The notes beneath the pieces are model-generated. The model saw nothing but the letters and a program-made list of their open reading frames with translations, ran no database searches and was not told where the DNA came from. From IMG/VR virus record IMGVR_UViG_2531839532_000007: a stretch of DNA of 8,294 bases. One strand, written 5' to 3'. Below are positions 1-8,294 of this stretch, piece after piece. The position numbers and the translations under genes are program-made. Origin of the DNA: a virus (taxonomy: Duplodnaviria; Heunggongvirae; Uroviricota; Caudoviricetes). Every line of letters starts with the position of its first letter. Positions within the stretch are counted from its first letter, which is position 1.

Positions 1-306
1 GGCTAATGAAACACGGCAGTTTGCCCGGATGTTGGGGCTTGAACCGAAGAACACGGCGGTGCGGAGTCCGGAGAGTAACGGCATAGCAGAGAGCTTCGTG
101 AAAACGATAAAGCGTGACTACATCAGTATCATGCCTAAACCAGACGGGTTAACGGCAGCAAAGAACCTTGCAGAGGCGTTCGAGCATTATAACGAATGGC
201 ATCCGCATAGTGCACTGGGTTATCGCTCGCCACGGGAATATCTGCGGCAGCAGGCCAGTAATGGGTTAAGTGATAACAGGTGTCTGGAAATATAGGGGCA
301 AATCCA
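1..306 (+). mobile_element. Right-hand end of an IS2 insertion sequence (3' part of orfB plus terminal inverted repeat); element continues left of the window
   Basis: The 1..295 translation matches the IS2 InsD C-terminus as I recall it, and the sequence ...tggaaatataggggcaaatcca ending at 306 matches the IS2 terminus from memory. The downstream gene loses its N-terminus exactly at this boundary. Confidence 0.85.
2..295 (+). CDS. insD: IS2 transposase OrfB (InsD), C-terminal fragment; 5' end lies outside the window
   Basis: ORF 29..295 is in frame with the window start; the translation ...[55 protein letters not shown]... is the integrase-core C-terminus of IS3-family OrfB as recalled for IS2. 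Confidence 0.88.
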
Positions 307-608
307 ACTATTTAGCCACAGAGAATGTTCATATTGTATTAAAAAATGATAATACAGTGTTATTAAAGGGCCTAAAAAACATTGTGTCTGTCAAATTTTC
401 AAAGGATAGGCATCTTATAGAAACGACCTCTAATAAGCTGAAATCCAGAGAGATCACATTTCAGGAATACAGAAGAAACCTTGCTAAAGCAGGAGTTTTT
501 CGGTGGGTTACAAATATCCACGAACAAAAAAGATATTACTATACCTTTGATAATTCATTACTATTTACTGAAAGCATCCAGAAAACTACACAGATCTTAC
601 CACGCTAA
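307..608 (+). pseudogene. ydfO: DUF1398-family prophage gene (YdfO/YbcV-like), 5'-truncated by the IS2 insertion
   Basis: The open frame runs through the IS2 boundary; the 100 residues after position 306 (…[59 protein letters not shown]…) contain no Met. The only in-frame start is a GTG at 270 inside IS2. Symbol is assigned from Qin synteny (next to gnsB), from memory. Confidence 0.55.
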
Positions 609-704
609 ACCATAACGTCCGGCTTCTCTCACTCCTGAGCCGGACTGCATTGGTTTAATAAAAACCATCAACAATTGTGATTTAGATATTCGGAACCATT
701 CAAA

Positions 705-733
705 TATAACAAAACCCCGTAAAAACGAGGTTT
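705..733 (-). terminator. Putative intrinsic terminator downstream of gnsB
   Basis: Minus-strand reading ACCUCG-UUUUUA-CGGGGU (6-bp stem with one G-U pair) followed by UUUGUUAUAUUU, about 30 nt after the gnsB stop. Confidence 0.4.
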
Positions 734-759
734 ATGGATAAATTTTATTATTGAATACA

Positions 760-933
760 TCAGATTAAATTAATCTTGACATCATAGCTTTCAAGACCCG
801 TCATTTTTTCCCGTGCGGTAAACTGAATACTGGTAACTTCTTTCCCGGTCTTTTTCTTAAGTTCAATAATTTTTTTTGTTATATATTCAGAAATATCTGC
901 TTCTGCTTTTGTTTTTAAGTTTTCAATATTCAT
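760..933 (-). CDS. gnsB: GnsB-like small protein (Gns family, 57 aa)
   Basis: Hand translation of the minus strand gives MMNIENLKTKAEADISEYITKKIIELKKKTGKEVTSIQFTAREKMTGLESYDVKINLI*, which matches GnsA/GnsB as I recall them. An AAGAGGA Shine-Dalgarno sits about 8 nt before the second ATG (933); the first ATG is at 936. The gene is absent from the ORF track because it is short. Confidence 0.8.
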   Translation of the reverse strand: MNIENLKTKAEADISEYITKKIIELKKKTGKEVTSIQFTAREKMTGLESYDVKINLI

Positions 934-981
934 CATTTCCTCTTTTAGTCTGTTATGACTTTCCAGTTACACAGTAAGTCG

Positions 982-987
982 ATTATA
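982..987 (-). promoter_or_regulatory. Candidate -10 element (TATAAT) of a gnsB promoter
   Basis: Perfect TATAAT on the minus strand about 45 nt upstream of the gnsB start codon; no convincing -35 at 17±1 bp spacing. Confidence 0.3.
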
Positions 988-1104
988 TGGTGCAAACGTG
1001 TAAAAGATAAGATGAAACATCGCAATAATCAACATACGATAGTCTAAATTTTACACAAACAGACAAAGAGAATTTTCCTGAATTATCAATGCAATAGCAT
1101 CAAA

Positions 1105-1335
1105 TCAACTCAAGAGCCTTATTGCTGCTTCCAGAATTTCTTCTGAAGTAACATGTCGATCCGCGGCTACATAAATGACTTTATGATCTCCGGTCAGAGA
1201 TGGAAACCCTGCGGCCATTACAGTAAGGTGTGTTTTTTCGCCATTTGGATATTCACGCATGATGGTGTTAACTCCAGTCATCGCTGGCACTACCACTGCT
1301 GGTTCAGAGTTAAAAAAAACTATGATTTTTTTCAT
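1105..1335 (-). CDS. ynfN: Small prophage protein in the YnfN position between cspI and gnsB (76 aa from ATG 1335; 51 aa from ATG 1260)
   Basis: The ORF-track entry 1105..1377 begins at a TTG. The first ATG (1335) gives MKKIIVFF…; the internal ATG at 1260 gives a 51-aa product MREYPNGEKTHLTVMAAGFPSLTGDHKVIYVAADRHVTSEEILEAAIRLLS with a GGAG about 11 nt upstream. Symbol is from synteny and the recalled 51-aa length of K-12 YnfN. Confidence 0.5.
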   Translation of the reverse strand: MKKIIVFFNSEPAVVVPAMTGVNTIMREYPNGEKTHLTVMAAGFPSLTGDHKVIYVAADRHVTSEEILEAAIRLLS

Positions 1336-1377
1336 GATGTTACCGTAGTATGTGAGTATCCATCGAATAGACACCAA

Positions 1378-1402
1378 GCAAAAAAGCTCCCGAAGGAGCC
1401 TT
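1378..1402 (-). terminator. Intrinsic terminator downstream of cspI
   Basis: Minus-strand reading AAGGCUCC-UUCG-GGAGCUUU followed by UUUUUU: a GC-rich stem closed by a UUCG tetraloop. An A-run precedes it on the plus strand, so it is partly bidirectional. Confidence 0.6.
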
Positions 1403-1606
1403 CATTTTCACTTTTTTAAATCCAACGACAGACGGCTGGCATTTAAGTATTGTGAAATATTATCAAATGTAATCATCATTGATTTACAAAAGATACATTT
1501 TGCCCCGAAAGGATTCATGTCAGAAACATCAAAAGATGATGTTCTATACTGGGAACCATGACAACACGGGCATCTAAAGTGAATATGGTTTGTAATATTG
1601 TCTACC

Positions 1607-1819
1607 TCAAAGCGCCACTACATGAACAGCGGCAGGACCTTTAGGTCCGTTCTCAATACCAAATTCAACTTCCTGATTCTCAGTTAATGTTTTGAAATCG
1701 TTGCTCTGAATTGCTGAGAAATGGACAAACACATCTTTGCTGCCATCTTTCGGCGTGATGAAACCAAAACCTTTTTCAGGGTTAAACCATTTCACTAAAC
1801 CAGTCATTTTGTTAGACAT
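1607..1819 (-). CDS. cspI: Cold-shock protein CspI (CspA family, 70 aa)
   Basis: [70 protein letters not shown] carries the RNP1/RNP2 motifs (KGFGFI, VFVHF). The leader ends in AAAGGTAATAATT-ATG, like the cspA leader. Confidence 0.95.
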
Positions 1820-1999
1820 AATTATTACCTTTTGAAGAAATTAGCCCTTGGGCAGAATGGTCCGAAAAAAAATATCAGAGAGAAAAACCAACAAGGAAAT
1901 CTCAAGAGGTACAAATAATAAAATTATAACAATGACTGCTTCAGATAAATTTGTAACAAACCAGAACACCATTAACGCATGATTAACCACCCATAGCAA
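1820..1999 (-). promoter_or_regulatory. cspI promoter (-35 TTGCTA at 1999..1994, -10 GTTAAT at 1976..1971) and ~145-nt 5' UTR
   Basis: cspA-type architecture with a 17-bp spacer and an AT-rich upstream region. The 11-mer ATGCGTTAATG spanning the -10 is identical to that of the cspB promoter in this window. Predicted leader length is about 145 nt. Confidence 0.45.
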
Positions 2000-2181
2000 G
2001 GATTACTTTTGTAAAGAAAAACACAGCAATGAAAGAATAGCTTTATTTATTAATAAAACGTGTCATTCTGATTAAGACCTTTTATCTTACCCTTAAGATT
2101 TCAGGAATTTTGGCTCATGGAAGAGTCCTTTTTATTTAAATTTTACATTCCGCGATGTAAATGTTCCGATTTAATATTACC

Positions 2182-3205
<1,024 letters not shown>

Positions 3206-3209
<4 letters not shown>

Positions 3210-3517
3210 AGATATTTATGATGAGGACGCTCGTGCTTATTGGCAGGATTTTCAATCTTAAAGGAGTACTGATGCTGCAGATAAGACTCAACTTTTTCTG
3301 ACAATTTTTCTGCTACTTCCAGGAAGACTTGCCGGACGCTCCTTCTGGCTGCTGCCTCATAAAACTCCAGCGCAGCTCCTTCAACACGGTCCATGGCGAC
3401 ATCCAGGTCAAAAATTTCACCGTCAAAGCGTTCTTTGTCCTGTAAGGCTACAGTTACCGTAACTTTATTCTCAAAATTACGGACTCCTTTCACAACCAGT
3501 TCATAGTCTTGAGTCAT
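3206..3517 (-). CDS. ydfR: DUF1327-family prophage protein (YdfR-like), 103 aa
   Basis: Intact ORF between holin and endolysin with a GAGGAGAG Shine-Dalgarno upstream of ATG 3517. Identity is by synteny and a recalled family match. Confidence 0.75.
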
Positions 3518-3521
3518 TGGA

Positions 3522-3737
3522 TTACTCTCCTCTCGCAGCCTTACGCCTGTCTTCTTTAATCTTGAAATAAAGATTTGTCAGATACGTCAGCAGGCCAAAA
3601 ACCAGGCTACCCAGCACACCGATTGCAGCCCACTGTGACGGAGTTACTTTATCGAGTAACTGCAATGCCCAGAAACCAGCATTACCCGCCGATGTGCCAT
3701 AGGCAACACCTGTTGTTAACTTATCCATTGATTTCAT
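3522..3737 (-). CDS. essQ: Class II holin / pinholin (phage 21 S-like), 71 aa with dual-start motif
   Basis: [71 protein letters not shown] has two transmembrane segments and a charged C-terminus. Met1 and Met4 give the holin/antiholin dual start. The ORF-track extension to 3812 starts at a GTG with no Shine-Dalgarno. Confidence 0.85.
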
Positions 3738-3956
3738 ATCCTCACCCCGATGTACACGGATGGTGCAATATGTTTGAAAAGATCGGAGTCTACGGGGTAG
3801 TTTTGACAGCACACGTTGTTCTCAACGGCGCTAAAAAAACATACACATTAAAAATGTGGGTAATTATTTTGAAAGAAAGTCATATATAAAATAATAATAC
3901 GAGAAATGTTTTCATATTTAGTGTACTGTATACGGCCATTTATACAGGAAAAGCCT

Positions 3957-4127
3957 ATGTCAGAACGTAAAAACTCAAAATCACGCCGTAATTATCTCGT
4001 TAAATGTTCCTGCCCAAACTGCACCCAAGAGTCAGAACACAGTTTTTCAAGAGTACAAAAAGGTGCCCTTTTGATCTGCCCTCATTGCAACAAAGTATTC
4101 CAGACAAATCTTAAAGCTGTAGCCTGA
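3957..4127 (+). CDS. Small zinc-ribbon protein (56 aa, CxxC…CxxC), antisense to the late operon
   Basis: MSERKNSKSRRNYLVKCSCPNCTQESEHSFSRVQKGALLICPHCNKVFQTNLKAVA with an AGGAAA Shine-Dalgarno 6 nt before ATG 3957. The ORF-track start at 3906 has a poorer Shine-Dalgarno. It may correspond to a small Qin protein annotated in recent K-12 releases, but I cannot name it with confidence. Confidence 0.5.
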   Translation: MSERKNSKSRRNYLVKCSCPNCTQESEHSFSRVQKGALLICPHCNKVFQTNLKAVA

Positions 4128-4180
4128 TTGATTTTATTAGTAACAAGTATTTTTTATATTTTAATAATATATTTAAAGCA

Positions 4181-4208
4181 GATAATAAAAAACCCGCCTG
4201 AGCGGGTT
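4181..4208 (-). terminator. Intrinsic terminator (strong on minus strand, weak on plus) between cspB and the zinc-ribbon ORF
   Basis: Perfect 7-bp stem AACCCGC-CTGA-GCGGGTT; the minus-strand reading is followed by UUUUAUUAUC. It lies about 280 nt downstream of the cspB stop. Confidence 0.55.
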
Positions 4209-4490
4209 TGAGATTGTGGTGCTTTTTGTGGGAGTCATCCACTTACGCACTTTGTTTTGCCATGCCAGCAGTTAGCTTCTGCTGTAAAACTATTCATGCA
4301 GCAAACCTGCACTTCACCACAATGGTTAGCATACTTTTCCTGATTAAGATTTTGCCAAATATGCTAGCCATTGTTTCATGTATTGGACCTCCTTACTTTT
4401 TATTAAAGAGATCCAATATTCACTACTCTGTCCGTATCTCTACTCAGGCATCAGCCTTCTTCGTTATCGTATACAGACGAGCGATGAATT

Positions 4491-4706
4491 TTAATCAGTA
4501 ATGATGACATTTGCTGCTGCAGGACCTTTAGCACCACTCTCTATAGAGAAGGTAACCTTTTGACCTTCAAATAAGGTTCGATAATTATCATTCTGAATCG
4601 CAGAAAAATGCACAAACACATCTTTACTACCATCAACAGGAGAAATAAAGCCGAAACCTTTATCAGCGTTAAACCATTTTACTAAACCAGTCATTTTATT
4701 TGACAT
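4491..4706 (-). CDS. cspB: Cold-shock protein CspB (CspA family, 71 aa)
   Basis: [71 protein letters not shown] with RNP motifs; AAGGAA Shine-Dalgarno upstream; divergent from cspF as in K-12. Confidence 0.95.
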
Positions 4707-4849
4707 TCTACATTCCTTAACTTGAGCCTTTCGGCATAAATGGTTTGCATAACAGAAACGACTTCGTACTTAATTGGAGAGACTCAAAGAAGGAATAAGT
4801 GAATAACACCTGAAATGAGAACTGCTTTAGTAAACTACTTCGTATATCG

Positions 4850-4902
4850 TCTGTTCTTCAAACCGACGCAATCATTAACGCATAGTTGAACATATGAAGC
4901 AA
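4850..4902 (-). promoter_or_regulatory. cspB promoter (-35 TTGCTT at 4902..4897, -10 GTTAAT at 4879..4874) with a cold-box-like element (TGAAGAACAGA, 4860..4850)
   Basis: 17-bp spacer and AT-rich UP-like region. The element just after the predicted start site matches the cspA cold box TGACGTACAGA at 9 of 11 positions. Predicted 5' UTR is about 160 nt. Confidence 0.45.
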
Positions 4903-5006
4903 TGTTTATTTTAGACATCCAGCCATCTTCAACCCCATCAAAAAACTATAGCTTTCTTCAGGAACGTGTGTATAGTGCGCCAAGTTATCAGTATTAAGGA
5001 ATTTTT

Positions 5007-5219
5007 TTGTCCCGTAAAATGACAGGAATTGTCAAAACCTTTGACGGCAAAAGCGGCAAGGGTCTTATCACCCCATCCGATGGTCGTATCGATGTCCAGC
5101 TTCATGTTTCAGCGCTCAATCTCCGCGATGCAGAAGAAATTACCACCGGATTACGCGTGGAATTTTGCCGGATAAATGGTCTGCGTGGCCCTTCAGCTGC
5201 CAATGTTTACCTTTCATGA
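5007..5219 (+). CDS. cspF: Cold-shock-protein paralogue CspF (70 aa)
   Basis: [70 protein letters not shown]. The 70-aa form starts at a TTG (5007) with AAGGA 8 nt upstream; the first ATG is at 5019. The RNP motifs are degenerate, as expected for CspF/CspH. Confidence 0.88.
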
Positions 5220-5273
5220 GCTATATTAAAGCTTTAATTTCAGGCCCCATCGGATCACACATGGAGAGTTTTT

Positions 5274-5363
5274 ATGAATAACCCCGTCTGTCTTGATGAC
5301 TGGTTGATTGGCTTTAAAAGCTTATGCTGTACTTTGGCCGTAATAGCTCTGCTAATAATATAA
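5274..5363 (+). CDS. Candidate small hydrophobic protein (29 aa) downstream of cspF
   Basis: GGAGAG Shine-Dalgarno 7 nt before ATG 5274; product [29 protein letters not shown] has a hydrophobic C-terminal half. It lies between cspF and the plus-strand terminator at 5512..5548. Sequence-only prediction. Confidence 0.3.
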
Positions 5364-5511
5364 TAAGCAGACTCATTGTGTTTAGGGACATTGTACTGGA
5401 AGAAAACATTTTAAACATCAGGCAAATAACCAAGTCACCAGCTAAATAATAAGTTAACAGACATGAGTCCCGGGATGAGATTCAACATTACCATTGCCCC
5501 ATTTAAAGCAC

Positions 5512-5548
5512 AAAACCCGCTCATCAGCGGGTTTTCTACTTTTTCTTA
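5512..5548. terminator. Bidirectional intrinsic terminator: cspF terminator on the plus strand and tR'-like terminator of the late leader on the minus strand
   Basis: Stem AAAACCCGCT-CATC-AGCGGGTTTT (perfect 8-10 bp). On the plus strand it is followed by UUCUACUUUUUCUU; on the minus strand by UUUUGUGCUUU. Confidence 0.6.
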
Positions 5549-5565
5549 ACGTCGGGTATACAAAG

Positions 5566-5609
5566 CCCATCGTTGAAAAAATTTTATCCATATTTTTTGA
5601 AAAATGCAA
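5566..5609 (-). promoter_or_regulatory. pR'-like late promoter with sigma70-dependent pause element (target of the Q antiterminator)
   Basis: Minus-strand reading TTGCAT-17 bp-TAAAAT-TTTTTC-AACGATGGG, beginning 32 nt after the Q stop. It parallels lambda pR' (TTGACT-17-TAAATT-TGACTC-AACGATGGG), including the -10-like AACGAT pause motif, as recalled. Confidence 0.6.
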
Positions 5610-5640
5610 ACATCATGTCGCCATCTTCAGCAAAAATCAT

Positions 5641-6393
5641 TTATCTCGTCACCTTCCTCAATTGCGCTTCCGCGTATGCTTCTTCCTGCCAGCACTTTGT
5701 TACCAGTTTACCAATGACGTCCGCATACCCCTTATACCACTGATAATCGGTCAGGTCTGGTACCAGCTTCTGGACATGACGTCGTGCCAGCGTGGTCGGT
5801 AAACGACTAAACCGGTTTCCATTACAACGCCCACAAATCTTATATACCGGTACGCCATGAAACCGGGTTCTTTTTTCATCCAGAACAATCCCTTTACCCT
5901 TACACCCTCTGCACGCTGTGCTGGCTTCGCCCTTACCATGGCAATGCTGACATAGTTCCTTCACCCATTCTTCCTTGATTACAGATTCCCCGCGTCTGTA
6001 GTGTTTCACCACTTCGCGCAATACATTATAAAATCCCGTACCTGAACAATGCTCACAGCGAGCCTTACTTGCCGCAGACCTGGAGTAATCAGCAAAGGCA
6101 AAACTCACGAGGTAAGGAATAATCTGTAACCGGATTTCTTCACTCAATTTGTTCAATGTCGGGTTATCCAGTGCCATCGCGTAATTTAGCAGGCCTTCAA
6201 TCGCAAACTGAGGGTCCTGAACACCAACTTTTGCCAGAAATAAGGCCAACCCAAGTGGTGCTTTCGACTGCACCATCCCCTGCGCTGCCATTACATCCGT
6301 AATTGTTAAACAACCGGTGCCTGTCGCTGGAGCGTCATCGCTCAATTTTGGAGATTTTGGGGAGTAATATTTTGGTAAGGCTTCAAGGTTCAT
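5641..6393 (-). CDS. quuQ: Late-gene antiterminator Q (250 aa from ATG 6393)
   Basis: Several CxxC/HCHGKG zinc-binding motifs (CEHCSGTG, CQHCHGKG, CRGCKGKG, CGRCNG) and a position directly upstream of a pR'-like promoter. GGAG lies 7 nt before ATG 6393; the ORF-track start at 6423 is a TTG. Length matches K-12 QuuQ as recalled. Confidence 0.88.
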   Translation of the reverse strand: MNLEALPKYYSPKSPKLSDDAPATGTGCLTITDVMAAQGMVQSKAPLGLALFLAKVGVQDPQFAIEGLLNYAMALDNPTLNKLSEEIRLQIIPYLVSFAFADYSRSAASKARCEHCSGTGFYNVLREVVKHYRRGESVIKEEWVKELCQHCHGKGEASTACRGCKGKGIVLDEKRTRFHGVPVYKICGRCNGNRFSRLPTTLARRHVQKLVPDLTDYQWYKGYADVIGKLVTKCWQEEAYAEAQLRKVTR

Positions 6394-6406
6394 GCTCGTT
6401 CTCCAC

Positions 6407-7456
6407 TTACGCCAGTACGCCAATTGCCAGCGCGCGATCGATAAAACGAAATATCAGCTCCAGTTGGGAGCCATACTTATCTTCAAATGCCACTGTATCC
6501 GTATGCAGCTCGTTGTGATGCTTTCTGCACAAAGGCAACACAAAGAGATCATGTGCTTTTGTTCCCATTCCGCCCTGCCCGTGACCAATCAGATGATGCG
6601 GATCGTCGGCTGGCATACCGCAGCAAGCACACGGCTGTGTCTTAACCCAACGTGTGTATTTCTCCTTAACCCAGCGGCGACGTTTAGGCAGCTTCATGAA
6701 AGATTCCGGAGACTCTGGATCAACGGTGATGCTTACCACCGTCTTTTCCTGTGGTGATTTTTGTTGCTGGTGGGCGTAAGGCAACGGTGCAAGATTTTTT
6801 GTGCGTTGTTTCAATATGCTGGTGGCGGTCTGCTCTCCCGGTACGATGTCGCTTTCGCGGTACACCGAGCAGATTTTTTCCGCTGGTAATCCCAGCGAAC
6901 GACGCGATACAGCCTCAGGTAGTGCATCCACCACCTGATTGCAGACCGCCCACCAGGATAATTCAGCCAAAGATAATTCCCGCTCCTGCGTACCGCTTAT
7001 TGCGTGACGGATGACGTCAATCACCCATGCTGTCAGATTTTGTTGAGCAAGCAGCTCCAGTGATTCCGATGTCTGGTCACGCAGTTGGTTGTCGCAGTGC
7101 CAGCACAACACCATTGCGCCGGTACCATAACGGTGAATGACTGTTTCAGTGTGATGGTAATCGCCATTAGGCCACTGGCAGGATGTAACATGACGTAATA
7201 GCCAGTCGGACAATGCGCCAACGCCGCCAGCAGCACGAATCACCCGTTCGTTACTAAAAAACGGCAGCAATGTTTTGTCTTCCGCCAGCGGCTGGCGAAC
7301 GGCAGGAACGACTCCGGATGGCAGATTACGCATGCTTTTTGGTTCCGGTTCCACCAGCACTCGAGGATTATGAAATATCTGTATGGATTCACGGCCCGGC
7401 TTAAGGACCACCAGCCCAAGCTCAGGCACCAGAACAGGTCTAAGTAATACCCGCAC
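6407..7456 (-). CDS. ydfU: DUF968-family protein with C-terminal HNH/His-Me-finger-like motif (YdfU-like), 349 aa from GTG 7456
   Basis: C-terminal motif …QPCACCGMPADDPHHLIGHGQGGMGTKAHDLFVLPLCRKHHNELH… Strong GGAGG Shine-Dalgarno 4-5 nt before GTG 7456; the ORF-track start at 7495 is also a GTG but lacks a Shine-Dalgarno. Stop lies 13 nt before the Q start. Confidence 0.8.
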   Translation of the reverse strand: MRVLLRPVLVPELGLVVLKPGRESIQIFHNPRVLVEPEPKSMRNLPSGVVPAVRQPLAEDKTLLPFFSNERVIRAAGGVGALSDWLLRHVTSCQWPNGDYHHTETVIHRYGTGAMVLCWHCDNQLRDQTSESLELLAQQNLTAWVIDVIRHAISGTQERELSLAELSWWAVCNQVVDALPEAVSRRSLGLPAEKICSVYRESDIVPGEQTATSILKQRTKNLAPLPYAHQQQKSPQEKTVVSITVDPESPESFMKLPKRRRWVKEKYTRWVKTQPCACCGMPADDPHHLIGHGQGGMGTKAHDLFVLPLCRKHHNELHTDTVAFEDKYGSQLELIFRFIDRALAIGVLA

Positions 7457-7457
7457 G

Positions 7458-7736
7458 TTACCTCCAGATCCGTTGCTGGAAAGTGCGGGACGCACGTGGT
7501 GGGCGTTCGGAATAAGGCAGCCTGACAGAGATTATCCAGTGCCGATAGTCGAGACTGAGAGCTTTCTTAACCTCGAACCCGCGCCTGCGGTAAGAATGAA
7601 TCAGCCATTCGGCCTGTTCTGCAGTGCATGGAGGGTGCTGGAACCATTCAGACTTGAATGCGTGAGAATACCGCCCGTGCGTGCAGGCAAGAACGGGCGA
7701 ATTATCAGAATTGTAATATTTTGCGTTGCGTGCCAT
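7458..7736 (-). CDS. Hypothetical 92-aa protein translationally coupled to the DUF968 gene
   Basis: ATG 7736 with GGAG 8 nt upstream; the TAA stop (7458..7460) sits inside the ydfU Shine-Dalgarno (GGAGGTAAcGTG). Product MARNAKYYNSDNSPVLACTHGRYSHAFKSEWFQHPPCTAEQ… is Cys/His-containing; no family recognised. Confidence 0.5.
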   Translation of the reverse strand: MARNAKYYNSDNSPVLACTHGRYSHAFKSEWFQHPPCTAEQAEWLIHSYRRRGFEVKKALSLDYRHWIISVRLPYSERPPRASRTFQQRIWR

Positions 7737-7802
7737 CGGTTTTCTCCGGTGGCACGGTGTTACTCAGCGGGAGTTCAGCCCCGCGCAAGATTGTAGATGA
7801 GT

Positions 7803-8054
7803 TTATTCTCCTGAAAAAGCAGAAAAGCCAGCTTTTATTCCGATCTCTTTCAATGCCTGTAATGAAGTGACAAACTCACCTTCGCGCAAGATAAATCCGT
7901 CCGTGACCCGAGCATCCACAAAATTAATTAACGCAGCCCCATTCTTTCGCAAACACATAATGCGGTAATGACTAACAAGATTTCCATTTTCAACGCACAC
8001 AGCATAGAGGCCATCTTCACAAAAAATTTTACGCAGTTCTTCGATGTTCATCAT
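7803..8054 (-). CDS. rem: Rem-like small prophage protein (83 aa), function unknown
   Basis: ATGATG start with AAGGA 6 nt upstream. Length and position (between the hok toxin and ydfU) match K-12 rem as recalled; I cannot verify the sequence itself. Confidence 0.6.
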   Translation of the reverse strand: MMNIEELRKIFCEDGLYAVCVENGNLVSHYRIMCLRKNGAALINFVDARVTDGFILREGEFVTSLQALKEIGIKAGFSAFSGE

Positions 8055-8170
8055 CAGAATCCTTCCGGATAATTAGCTCTCCCCTTTAAGGGACCATCCC
8101 TCTTATCCCTGCGCGCTACTTAAGTATTTTTGATTCTATTCCGGCACCGTCCAGAACTTCAAACGCGTTG

Positions 8171-8202
8171 AAAATAAAAACAAAAACCCGCCGAAGCGGG
8201 TT
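8171..8202 (-). terminator. Intrinsic terminator of the upstream (hok-containing) transcription unit
   Basis: Stem AACCCGC-CGAA-GCGGGTT; the minus-strand reading is followed by UUUUUGUUUUUAUUUU. It sits about 70 nt after the hok-like stop codon. Confidence 0.6.
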
Positions 8203-8270
8203 AAGTGCGGGTGCGTTGAGGATGCCTGCCACATCAGAGGTGGCGAGGGATTTCTCCCCCGCCGGGTCTC

Positions 8271-8294
8271 TTACTCCTCAGGTTCGTAAGCTGT
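8271..8294 (-). CDS. hokD: Hok-family type I toxin (HokD/RelF-like), C-terminal 7 codons plus stop; rest of gene outside the window
   Basis: Minus-strand translation of the window edge gives …TAYEPEE*, which matches the Hok/Gef/RelF C-terminus (…EVAVFTAYEPEE) as recalled. Very short fragment. Confidence 0.5.
   Translation of the reverse strand, partial: TAYEPEE

Follow-up and report, generated by a model that had tools for sequence, protein, structure and literature searches.

The divergent cspB/cspF pair of the Qin prophage as the probable core of a cargo module between tR′ and the holin gene

Gene content of the locus

The window, i.e., the whole stretch of 8294 nucleotides that was analyzed, aligns from position 307 to 8294 with the Qin cryptic prophage of Escherichia coli K-12 at 99.975% identity, and the remaining differences in this part are two point differences. 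Positions 1 to 306 are an IS3-family fragment (IS damage) that replaces the start of ydfO in K-12. The segment from 4491 to 5219 runs from cspB (b1557, minus strand) to cspF (b1558, plus strand), which carry the label "cryptic prophage Qin" in the K-12 annotation. The DNA of the two genes is essentially identical to that of K-12, with no difference inside the segment. The genes are divergent, and their start codons lie 300 bp apart. The gene order is that of K-12 Qin (Q, cspF, cspB, ynfU, essQ, Table 1). The late genes occupy the minus strand, and the csp pair follows Q, a lambda-type PR′, and tR′ and precedes the holin gene essQ. cspB points in the direction of the late operon, to which cspF is antisense.

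An earlier, sequence-only reading of this DNA had described a divergent cspB/cspF pair between Q and the holin gene, below the late promoter, with cspF antisense to the late transcript. This layout is confirmed by the exact ORF ends, the cold-shock domain matches of both proteins, the Pfam matches and K-12 annotation of the flanking genes, and the plus-strand position of cspF opposite the minus-strand late genes. The pair was also said to be known from Qin and functionally unexplained, the core of which is supported. The observation is correct and already known, as the genes have long been annotated in Qin; a chance pattern as the source of their signals is ruled out.

Table 1. Features of the cspB/cspF locus in window coordinates. 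Term-seq refers to the part of the K-12 Term-seq lists that was available.
Feature	Position	Strand	Description	Evidence
essQ	3522–3737	−	phage 21-type class II holin, first lysis gene	Pfam PF04971, E 4.4e-34
ynfU	3957–4127	+	56-aa zinc-ribbon protein, convergent with cspB	Pfam PF23499, E 3.5e-31; K-12 annotation
Intrinsic terminator	4190–4209	.	between cspB and ynfU, bidirectional	terminator scan, minus strand
RNA element	4213–4323	−	four helices, outer stem around three hairpins	consensus fold
cspB 3′ end	4376–4414	−	hairpin 4385–4414, then dominant cspB-strand 3′ end 4376/4378	Term-seq
cspB CDS	4491–4706	−	71 aa	Pfam CSD PF00313, E 9.8e-32; K-12 annotation
cspB leader	4707–4867	−	cspA-type, thermoregulatory, 161 nt	Rfam RF01766
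cspB −10	4874–4879	−	GTTAAT, TGc-extended	sequence; cross-genus conservation
cspB promoter	4874–4914	−	UP-like AT tract 4903–4914, −35 TTGCTT 4897–4902, 17-bp spacer	
Predicted cspF promoter	4949–4976	+	−35 TAGCTT 4949–4954, 16-bp spacer, −10 TATAGT 4971–4976	
cspF CDS	5007–5219	+	70 aa, TTG start; CspF/CspH clade	Pfam PF00313, E 5.6e-22
ynfS	5274–5363	+	29-aa small protein downstream of cspF	K-12 annotation; Pfam PF23697, E 4.7e-23
Second hairpin	5348–5371	−	downstream of tR′	Term-seq 3′ end 5340 = 1642188(−)
tR′ hairpin	5512–5535	.	bidirectional; edge of the conserved Q module	terminator scan; Term-seq
PR′	5569–5609	−	−35 TTGCAT 5604–5609, 17-bp spacer, −10 TAAAAT 5581–5586	lambda alignment
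Q (ydfT/quuQ)	5641–6393	−	late antiterminator	Pfam PF03589, E 4.2e-54, and PF00684; K-12 annotation

The cspB gene, its leader, and its 3′ end

CspB and CspF both cover positions 1 to 64 or 1 to 65 of the 66 positions of the PF00313 profile. CspB harbors the canonical RNP1 (KGFGFI, within KGFGFIS) and RNP2 (VFVHF, within DVFVHF). The first base of a published primer used for cloning the cspB 5′-UTR coincides with position 4867 of the window, where the leader begins. Leader and coding sequence together match the cspA thermoregulator RF01766 at 4475–4867 on the minus strand, covering the full-length model (positions 1–428) with 158.8 bits (E 2.2e-42), twice the gathering score of 78. A premature 3′ end marked as Rho-dependent lies inside the leader at 4786 (1641634(−)) in the available part of the K-12 Term-seq lists. 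In the same lists, the top scores of the region fall on 1641224/1641226(−), which are window positions 4376 and 4378. A hairpin of unlike sequence is found in Cyrano and PHB10 at the position equivalent to the one that precedes this 3′ end. A terminator scan for a private terminator right after cspB yielded only a weak site at 4296–4312. Published work reports cold induction of cspB and also its expression during long-term stationary phase at 37 °C.

The cspF gene and ynfS

The best PDB matches of CspF are CspA and CspE. The regions that correspond to the RNP motifs read KSGKGLIT and DVQLHV, and alignment with CspA reveals the substitutions W11T, F18K, F20L, F31Q, and F34V. The literature agrees that CspF is devoid of the aromatic RNA-binding residues, and CspF was inactive in two Csp reporter assays based on two Csp-responsive leaders. 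CspB had little effect in these assays, though the protein accumulated poorly. CspF is not a typical nucleic-acid chaperone. The earlier description of both genes as nucleic-acid chaperone genes fits CspB with its canonical motifs and fails for CspF.

The −35 and −10 elements of cspF are of the sigma-70 type and are invariant in a cross-genus alignment of eight sequences as well as in the paralogue cspH, whose promoter is sigma-70 dependent in vitro. The cspB and cspF promoters are both conserved across genera. The cspF leader is predicted to comprise only about 24 nt. No match to RF01766 was obtained for cspF at E ≤ 1 on either strand, and the conserved −10 is situated about 30 nt from the start codon; on both grounds, cspF is placed outside the cold-inducible cspA-type subgroup (cspA/B/G/I). 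Of the own promoters and long leaders that had been ascribed to both genes, those of cspB stand, with a well-supported promoter and start and a leader that belongs to a known family. For cspF, the promoter is a prediction from conservation, and the long leader is not retained. Transcripts of cspB and cspF are detected at 37 °C in K-12, and tagged YnfS and tagged YnfU proteins have been detected as well. The terminator scan found no terminator directly after cspF.

Late control unit and terminators

The window contains a lambda-type late unit in which a Q homologue, PR′ with its pause element, and tR′ are all present. Q is a member of the lambda-Q family that carries an extra CXXCXGXG zinc-finger segment and matches lambda Q (PDB 7ubm) with E 4.6e-36 over both halves. 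A Q of the phage-21 type had been expected because the Q module also occurs in Stx2c phages; a lambda-Q relative was what the PDB search returned. The promoter scan picked the same PR′ −10 as the lambda alignment. The −10-like pause element of PR′ is AACGAT (5569–5574), and CAACGATGGG is invariant between the PR′ region of Qin and lambda PR′ in the alignment. By homology to lambda, transcription from PR′ probably starts at about 5574.

The PR′ RNA of about 67 nt is ended by tR′, with its 3′ end at 5508 on the minus strand (1642356(−) in the available part of the K-12 Term-seq lists). The second hairpin further downstream is probably a back-up stop for PR′ read-through. On the plus strand, tR′ is the sole terminator-like site downstream of cspF-ynfS, and the K-12 Term-seq lists, in the part examined, hold no plus-strand 3′ end at tR′. 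At the terminator between cspB and ynfU, the partly available Term-seq data place a plus-strand 3′ end at 4212, and the tables examined, again in part, hold no minus-strand 3′ end there. The two bidirectional hairpins are located 281 and 293 nt past the csp stop codons; one is common to ynfU, and the other is tR′. The terminators that the sequence-only reading had assigned to the csp genes as their own are hence better described as shared, bidirectional, and distant, with the main 3′ end of cspB elsewhere (4376/4378).

Cargo status of the Q-to-S interval

In relatives with Q modules of about 90% nucleotide identity (SfV, PhiR47_1, two E. coli prophages, and Stx2c phages), homology ends exactly at 5512, the distal edge of tR′. 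From there to about 3763 these relatives carry unrelated DNA, and two of them have the same holin type too. From the lysis side, homology to other S21-type lysis modules stops at breakpoints 3732 and 3763. A comparison with related lambdoid prophages had been proposed as a check on other cargo, and their Q-to-S intervals hold a methylase, four tRNAs, a NanS-p esterase, and genes without known function. A Qin-type Q module is present in 2415 of 5426 genomes, and 1608 genomes have the contiguous Q-cargo-S stretch. The GC content is 34–45% over 3751–5550 versus 47–55% in Q and ydfU and 45–51% in the lysis genes. In repressed prophages of the viable Qin-like phage Tritos, cspB is expressed at 59-fold over the local prophage background; cspB and cspI are listed as morons, so that the moron reading has already been published for this phage. 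The loss of homology at 5512, the alternative cargo, the AT-rich interval, and the transcription of cspB from repressed prophages together sustain the moron reading for Qin, in agreement with the insertion that was proposed earlier.

The mobile unit spans 3764–5511 (about 1.75 kb) and comprises ynfU, the RNA element, cspB, cspF, and ynfS. The cspB/cspF pair, which had been regarded as the cargo, is therefore part of a larger unit. With a probability of about 0.9, cspB and cspF of Qin form the core of an AT-rich, transcriptionally autonomous cargo module of this size between tR′ and the holin gene.

The opposite case, in which the interval is part of the ancestral lambdoid genome and the csp genes have belonged to the phage from the start, can draw on cspI, which follows Rz elsewhere in the window and has an RF01766 leader of its own, and on the sheer frequency of the arrangement in 1608 genomes. 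It is already contradicted and has next to no probability left. Relatives with the same flanks break sharply at tR′ and the holin, the reverse of the ancestral interval in related prophages that had been named as what would refute an insertion; the gap between tR′ and S in lambda is without any gene of such kind, the base composition deviates, and a collinear module occurs in nonphage chromosomal contexts of other genera.

Conservation and origin of the module

About 20 loci from at least seven genera, all lacking Q and the holin, contain cspF, cspB, the RNA element, and ynfU in collinear order. The module is conserved on the chromosomes of Enterobacter, Kosakonia, and Kluyvera, and in phage PHB10 it is located near the integrase. 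In other genera, conservation of ynfU goes together with that of cspB and cspF. A chromosomal module that is conserved beside umuDC, of the type seen in Enterobacter, Kosakonia, and Phytobacter, is most likely the source of the Qin module or has a common ancestor with it. In phage genome records (2H10, HannyBb, PhiR42_1), the cassette is at least 95% conserved. HannyBb contains an extra 1.55 kb, in which a tRNA search found no tRNA and a 94-aa ORF had no Pfam match.

That the csp pair might be the decaying, functionless baggage of a dead prophage is suggested by the cryptic state of Qin with its IS damage, by the cspF deletion, which has no phenotype, and by the truncated or frameshifted cspF of Tritos and some Escherichia loci. 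The ORFs are intact, however, and in comparisons across genera all three genes have a pN far below pS, with dN/dS of 0.06–0.30 where dS is estimable, which points to purifying selection. Conservation extends to the promoters, the thermosensor leader, and the 3′ RNA element; deletion of cspB lowers fitness in long-term stationary phase, and the phage genome records keep the cassette. Mere decay is accordingly very improbable.

A conserved RNA element downstream of cspB

The RNA element is supported by covariation: 98.2% of the alignment cells at its pairs are paired, both partners differ in 8 of the 24 pairs, and none of 500 shuffles equals the result. Identity to other genera is 71–76% in its core versus 15–45% in the flanks. 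Rfam searches with the whole window, with two other genera, and with short subwindows (E ≤ 10) gave no relevant match. The candidates Trp_leader, isrK, STnc370, and RyhB were terminator-driven noise far under their gathering scores. A 20-codon ORF within the Qin element is interrupted in other genera by 2-nt indels and early stops, on account of which a coding explanation is rejected; a 97-aa plus-strand ORF at 4208–4501 falls on the same grounds. Nothing relevant on an sRNA or 3′-UTR element of cspB was found in the literature searched. The element is apparently undescribed and possibly the one item that is new here.

A tentative extension of the cargo reading, put at somewhat below even odds, is that the cargo corresponds to a conserved enterobacterial module (cspF, cspB, RNA element, and ynfU) in which the RNA of about 110 nt is a functional, undescribed motif. 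It may act as a processing or stability element in the 3′-UTR of the cspB mRNA, or it may control the convergent transcription of cspB and ynfU. If functional, it would be a new regulatory element for a well-studied cold-shock system. An RNA element without a described family, together with a three-gene module common to phages and chromosomes, could matter more than the csp pair.

Proposed mode of expression

In the proposed mechanism, cspB would be read from its own sigma-70 promoter with UP-like tract and TG-extended −10 through the 161-nt cspA-type thermosensor leader, and a repressed prophage would therefore yield CspB, chiefly at low temperature and in late stationary phase. Transcription of cspF and ynfS would proceed divergently from the back-to-back promoter with a short leader. 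The two bidirectional hairpins appear to fence the module and may insulate it: the one at 5512–5535 would double as tR′ and shut cspF transcription out of Q, and the one at 4190–4209 would probably shut cspB transcription out of the lysis genes, starting with the holin. Upon induction, Q-modified polymerase from PR′ would ignore these terminators and then run antisense through cspF and in sense through cspB into essQ. Fencing by bidirectional terminators could let the cargo and the lysis genes be expressed without mutual interference. The module may benefit host or phage.

An alternative explanation is that the cassette is kept since it tunes late expression of the phage, not for host benefit. 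Two routes are conceivable. On the long late transcript, CspB could serve as an RNA chaperone or as an antiterminator when temperatures are low; CspA-family proteins can reportedly act as antiterminators. Alternatively, transcription of cspF-ynfS could collide with the PR′ transcript or pair to it and dampen leaky late expression. The geometry suits both routes, as the path of the late transcript takes in cspB in sense orientation and cspF in antisense orientation, transcription of cspF-ynfS runs toward PR′ and uses the same terminator hairpin, and minus-strand RNA leaks beyond tR′ to 5340 in the available part of the Term-seq lists. The cassette is also retained in phage genome records, and Tritos genomes, in which cspB is present and cspF is damaged, are encapsidated. 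The same Tritos is nevertheless produced despite its damaged cspF, and where a Qin-type Q module is present, about one-third of the genomes are without the contiguous Q-cargo-S arrangement, while sampled relatives carry other cargo. Also against late tuning, CspF is without the RNA-binding aromatics and was inactive on the two leaders, and CspB, although it accumulated poorly, had little effect. The same module resides in chromosomes without a nearby phage late operon and near the PHB10 integrase; its conservation is therefore independent of the position between Q and S. Late tuning is thus considered unlikely, and the autonomous cargo module remains the preferred reading.

Comparison with known systems

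The slot between tR′ and the holin gene is also the place of the stx genes of Stx phages and of nmpC in DLP12. The locus is a clean, well-bounded example of how this slot of lambdoid phages takes self-contained host-type modules.

The closest chromosomal counterpart is cspH-cspG (b0989/b0990), which is arranged back-to-back like cspF-cspB and is 76% identical over a stretch that takes in cspF, the entire intergenic control region, and the initial 115 nt of cspB. The two promoters, the cold-box leader, and the TTG start are conserved in it. In contrast to the Qin pair, it is not in a recognizable prophage and has neither ynfU nor the 3′ RNA element. Its 3′ half, together with the downstream ymcF and gnsA, resembles the cspI-ynfQ-gnsB cargo of Qin. 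As a weaker reading, the cspH-cspG-ymcF-ymcE-gnsA island may descend from a Qin-like prophage by cspB × cspI recombination that deleted the lysis cassette; the evidence for cspG as such a recombinant is a Fisher p of 0.014 over 57 informative sites. No relevant discussion of a paralogy between cspG-gnsA and cspI-gnsB was found in the literature searched.

Compared to the cspA mRNA thermosensor of RF01766, the 3′ terminator segment of the model has no match in cspB, which carries some 280 nt of additional 3′ sequence with a different conserved structure in its place.

Among the Q-to-S morons, stx, nanS-p, the tRNA clusters, and nmpC of DLP12 occupy the same slot directly downstream of tR′. Like these and like bor and lom of lambda, the csp cargo appears to have its own expression signals, is of deviant composition, and is replaceable between phages with the same flanks. 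It differs from the other Q-to-S morons in that it consists of a stress module of the housekeeping type instead of virulence genes or tRNAs and in having one member, cspF, that is antisense to the late operon.

Identity and gene order of the region

The window corresponds to the late region of the Escherichia coli cryptic prophage Qin, with the minus strand carrying the phage late genes. Over 307-8294 it is 99.975% identical to Qin of K-12 MG1655. By the K-12 annotation, the gene order from left to right is gnsB, ynfN, ynfR, ynfQ, cspI, rzpQ/rzoQ, rrrQ, ydfR, essQ, ynfU, cspB, cspF, ynfS, ydfT (Q), ydfU, and rem. The divergent cspB/cspF pair fills 4491-5219 exactly from stop codon to stop codon. 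Because of this fit, the Qin match, and the cold-shock domain in both products, the pair is confirmed as real and not a chance pattern. Near the hokD end of the window, 8181-8262 (-) weakly resembles isrK, a family of prophage sRNAs (25.1 bits, gathering score 50; E 0.034), and the span of this hit includes a terminator hairpin.

Features of the Qin late region in window coordinates
Feature	Position	Strand	Remarks
IS3-family transposase 3′ fragment	1-306		Takes the place of the ydfO start relative to K-12; K-12 Qin similarity begins at 307
Island-matching piece: gnsB	759-951		
Island-matching piece: cspI and ynfQ	1460-1823		
cspI	1580-1965	minus	Second csp cargo gene, 3′ of the Rz genes; own cspA-type thermoregulator leader (RF01766, 112.8 bits)
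Bidirectional terminator hairpin	4190-4209		281 nt after cspB; also ends convergent ynfU; plus-strand 3′ end at 4212 (Term-seq)
RNA element	4213-4323	minus	Between the 4376/4378 3′ end and the 4190-4209 terminator
cspB	4491-4706	minus	Cold-shock-domain protein (PF00313, E 9.8e-32)
Island-matching piece: cspF, intergenic region, first 115 nt of cspB	4592-5215		
cspF	5007-5219	plus	Cold-shock-domain protein (PF00313, E 5.6e-22)
tR′ hairpin	5512-5535		G+C-rich, 3′ of PR′; T-run on the plus strand also
Q (ydfT)	5641-6393	minus	250-aa product, lambda family (PDB 7ubm, E 4.6e-36; Pfam PF03589)

The late control unit

Compared to lambda Q (207 aa), the Qin antiterminator contains an insertion, a zinc-finger segment of the DnaJ type (CXXCXGXG; Pfam PF00684, residues 158-203 as numbered on the 260-aa ORF 5641-6423). 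The late promoter PR′ directly follows the Q stop codon and consists of TTGCAT, a 17-bp spacer, and TAAAAT, followed by CAACGATGGG. This segment aligns base for base with lambda PR′ and its -10-like pause element. The published Term-seq tables for K-12 contain a strong minus-strand 3′ end just past the tR′ hairpin (K-12 1642356, window 5508). Given the lambda-like promoter, the hairpin, and this end, Qin produces a leader RNA of ~67 nt from PR′, which is terminated at tR′. Another minus-strand 3′ end is recorded at 5340, together with a second hairpin (5348-5371) inside the antisense of ynfS; part of the transcription from PR′ thus continues beyond tR′ even without induction.

In the direction of late transcription, tR′ precedes both csp genes and the phage-21-type holin gene essQ (Pfam PF04971) follows them, which puts the pair between the late promoter and the holin, as the sequence-only reading had stated. 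It was also right that cspF, on the plus strand, is antisense to the late transcript; cspB is co-oriented with the late operon.

In phage HannyBb (locus positions 3700-5251), the Q 3′-end and PR′ segment (window 5558-5698) is duplicated, and ~1.55 kb of extra DNA separates the two copies. The extra DNA contains no tRNAs; it includes a plus-strand ORF of 94 aa whose C-terminus is hydrophobic and which has no Pfam match. PhiR63_1 likely has the same layout.

Cargo status of the Q-to-holin interval

The proposal that the csp genes are inserted cargo is borne out by the related lambdoid prophages. In relatives with a ~90%-identical Q module (SfV, mEp460, Ayreon, PhiR47_1, many Stx2c-converting phages, and two inspected E. 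coli prophages), all similarity is lost exactly at window 5512. Each relative has other content after tR′: a DNA methylase and a 64-aa ORF in SfV, a 141-aa ORF and four tRNA genes in PhiR47_1, a NanS-p-type sialate esterase in one E. coli prophage, and a 111-aa ORF in another. Two of these relatives, PhiR47_1 and strain 2013C_3964, also share the Qin holin type. Because similarity stops at 5512 and resumes in these two only at ~3763 and 3732, the variable interval extends over 3764-5511. Its G+C content is 34-45%, compared to 47-55% in Q and ydfU.

A count over 5426 complete genomes of E. coli found the Qin-type Q module in 2415 of them; 1619 have the cargo interval, and 1608 have Q, cargo, and holin as one contiguous stretch. 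The cassette also occurs at 95-100% identity in the phage records PhiR42_1, 2H10, HannyBb, and PhiR63_1. Phage Tritos, which strain LF82 spontaneously produces as encapsidated genomes, carries cspB; its cspB and cspI were reported at 59-fold and 93-fold above the prophage background, respectively, and both have been called morons in the literature. In view of the swapped content, the deviant G+C, and this published naming, the csp interval is cargo, and the moron reading is right and already in the literature.

A module shared with other genera

The inserted unit extends beyond the pair: besides cspF and cspB, the cargo module comprises an RNA element and ynfU, to which ynfS is added in Escherichia. 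An exact-pattern scan with one genome per species yielded 26 loci, ~20 of which are collinear, with a cspF homolog, a divergent cspB homolog, and usually a convergent ynfU homolog (Kosakonia, Enterobacter, Phytobacter, Kluyvera, Superficieibacter, Pseudescherichia, and Raoultella). In the two loci inspected, the neighbors are umuC and either umuD and an SRAP peptidase (Enterobacter) or an AcrB-type pump (Kosakonia), and neither Q nor lysis genes are among them. Phage PHB10 harbors ynfU, cspB, and cspF homologs in the same order beside its integrase and umuDC, not between Q and S. At least 120 IMG/VR contigs contain the motif; 64 of them show the full Q-cspF-cspB-ynfU-essQ-rrrQ order, and neither Q nor a holin is found near the 13 Enterobacter-type copies. 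For cspF, cspB, and ynfU, pN is far below pS, and dN/dS is 0.06-0.30 where dS is estimable. Qin thus holds a copy of a module that other genera carry in the chromosome. This agrees with host-type cargo, the direction of transfer being unproven.

The same distribution bears on the possibility that the cassette modulates late read-through. This alternative is weakened on two counts: the module is also conserved where there is no late operon, and Tritos is produced even though its cspF is damaged. Tritos lacks window 5210-5467, comprising the cspF 3′ end and ynfS, so that its cspF is truncated.

Several synthetic-biology papers use the K-12 essQ-cspB intergenic locus as a neutral chromosomal landing site. 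The essQ-cspB interval (window ~3738-4490) contains ynfU and the RNA element.

Expression signals of the pair

Both genes had been credited with their own promoters, long leaders, and terminators. The cspA thermoregulator family of Rfam (RF01766) matches 4475-4867 (-) end to end (158.8 bits, gathering score 78), and the extent of this match places the cspB mRNA start at 4867, with a 161-nt leader. A published cspB 5′-UTR cloning primer begins with the same bases. The cspB promoter combines TTGCTT with a TGc-extended GTTAAT across a 17-bp spacer and includes a UP-like tract rich in A+T; all of these are kept across genera. For cspF, which has no Rfam match, a promoter is predicted from T.GC..T and TAT..T hexamers, 16 bp apart (4949-4976), that are invariant in an alignment with the cspH paralog and six other genera. 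They predict a leader of ~24 nt, so that long leaders hold for cspB only. The cspH promoter was reported to be sigma-70 dependent in vitro. The TTG start codon of cspF (5007) is kept in cspH and all nine other-genera homologs examined, which suggests a selected weak initiation codon.

Terminators of their own were not found, as a terminator scan detected none adjoining cspB or cspF. The nearest convincing hairpin after cspF is tR′, 293 nt on, with ynfS in between, and the hairpin beyond cspB is shared with ynfU. The published K-12 Term-seq tables contain no minus-strand 3′ end at the latter; the strongest minus-strand 3′ end of the region by far lies at 4376/4378, 113-115 nt past the cspB stop. 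It is immediately preceded by a hairpin (4385-4414, -) whose position but not sequence is kept in Cyrano and PHB10. Rho-dependent premature termination within the cspB leader or ORF at 37 °C has been described from Term-seq and reporter data.

CspB and CspF proteins

CspB has canonical RNP1 and RNP2 motifs, but CspF has lost W11, F18, F20, F31, and F34 in the alignment with CspA. The same losses were noted in published work for the CspF/CspH clade, whose function was reported as unknown, and overproduction of CspF and CspH left two Csp-responsive leaders unaffected. Because of both observations, it is unsafe to name both genes nucleic-acid chaperones. In K-12, cspB, cspF, and cspI transcripts increase in long-term stationary phase at 37 °C, and competitive survival is lowered by loss of cspB or cspI but not of cspF. 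In two Escherichia loci, one of them from E. ruysiae, cspF is broken into two frames, and some lineages can dispense with the gene.

Overall, the pair is real, and its interpretation is correct in outline and already known. Corrections concern four details: how long the cspF leader is, what kind of terminators serve the pair, the biochemistry of CspF, and how far the module extends.

A conserved element, probably a structured RNA

The RNA element is 71-76% identical between Qin and other genera (62-68% without the bases fixed by the search pattern), compared to only 15-45% in its flanks, and synonymous sites of the adjacent genes are nearly saturated (pS 0.5-0.86). RNAalifold predicts an outer stem around three hairpins. 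In these four helices, 98.2% of cells are paired across 23 distinct sequences, and sliding the partners lowers pairing to 22-64%. Both partners vary in eight of 24 pairs, whereas shuffles give a mean of 3.5 (0/500 reach 8), with covariation in three helices, in an alignment that comprises few independent lineages and two blocks fixed by the search pattern. The excess of G-U pairs (~30 cells) over A-C (~6 cells) favors a reading on the cspB strand. The single-sequence fold has a z of -2.3.

No Rfam family matches the element, a small ORF located there is not maintained in other genera, no stable RNA end marks it in K-12 at 37 °C, and a literature search found no description. It is probably an undescribed structured RNA, and it is the only part of the region that might repay further work.

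Comparison with the cspH-cspG-gnsA island

The chromosomal cspH-cspG-ymcF-ymcE-gnsA island of K-12 matches three pieces of Qin at 73-76% identity (Table). The cspG gene resembles cspB in its 5′ third and cspI beyond it: its first 72 nt share 10 sites only with cspB and 5 only with cspI, compared to 12 and 30 in the remainder (Fisher p = 0.014). This pattern is suggestive only, and the island may be what remained of a Qin-like prophage after recombination between cspB and cspI had removed its lysis cassette.
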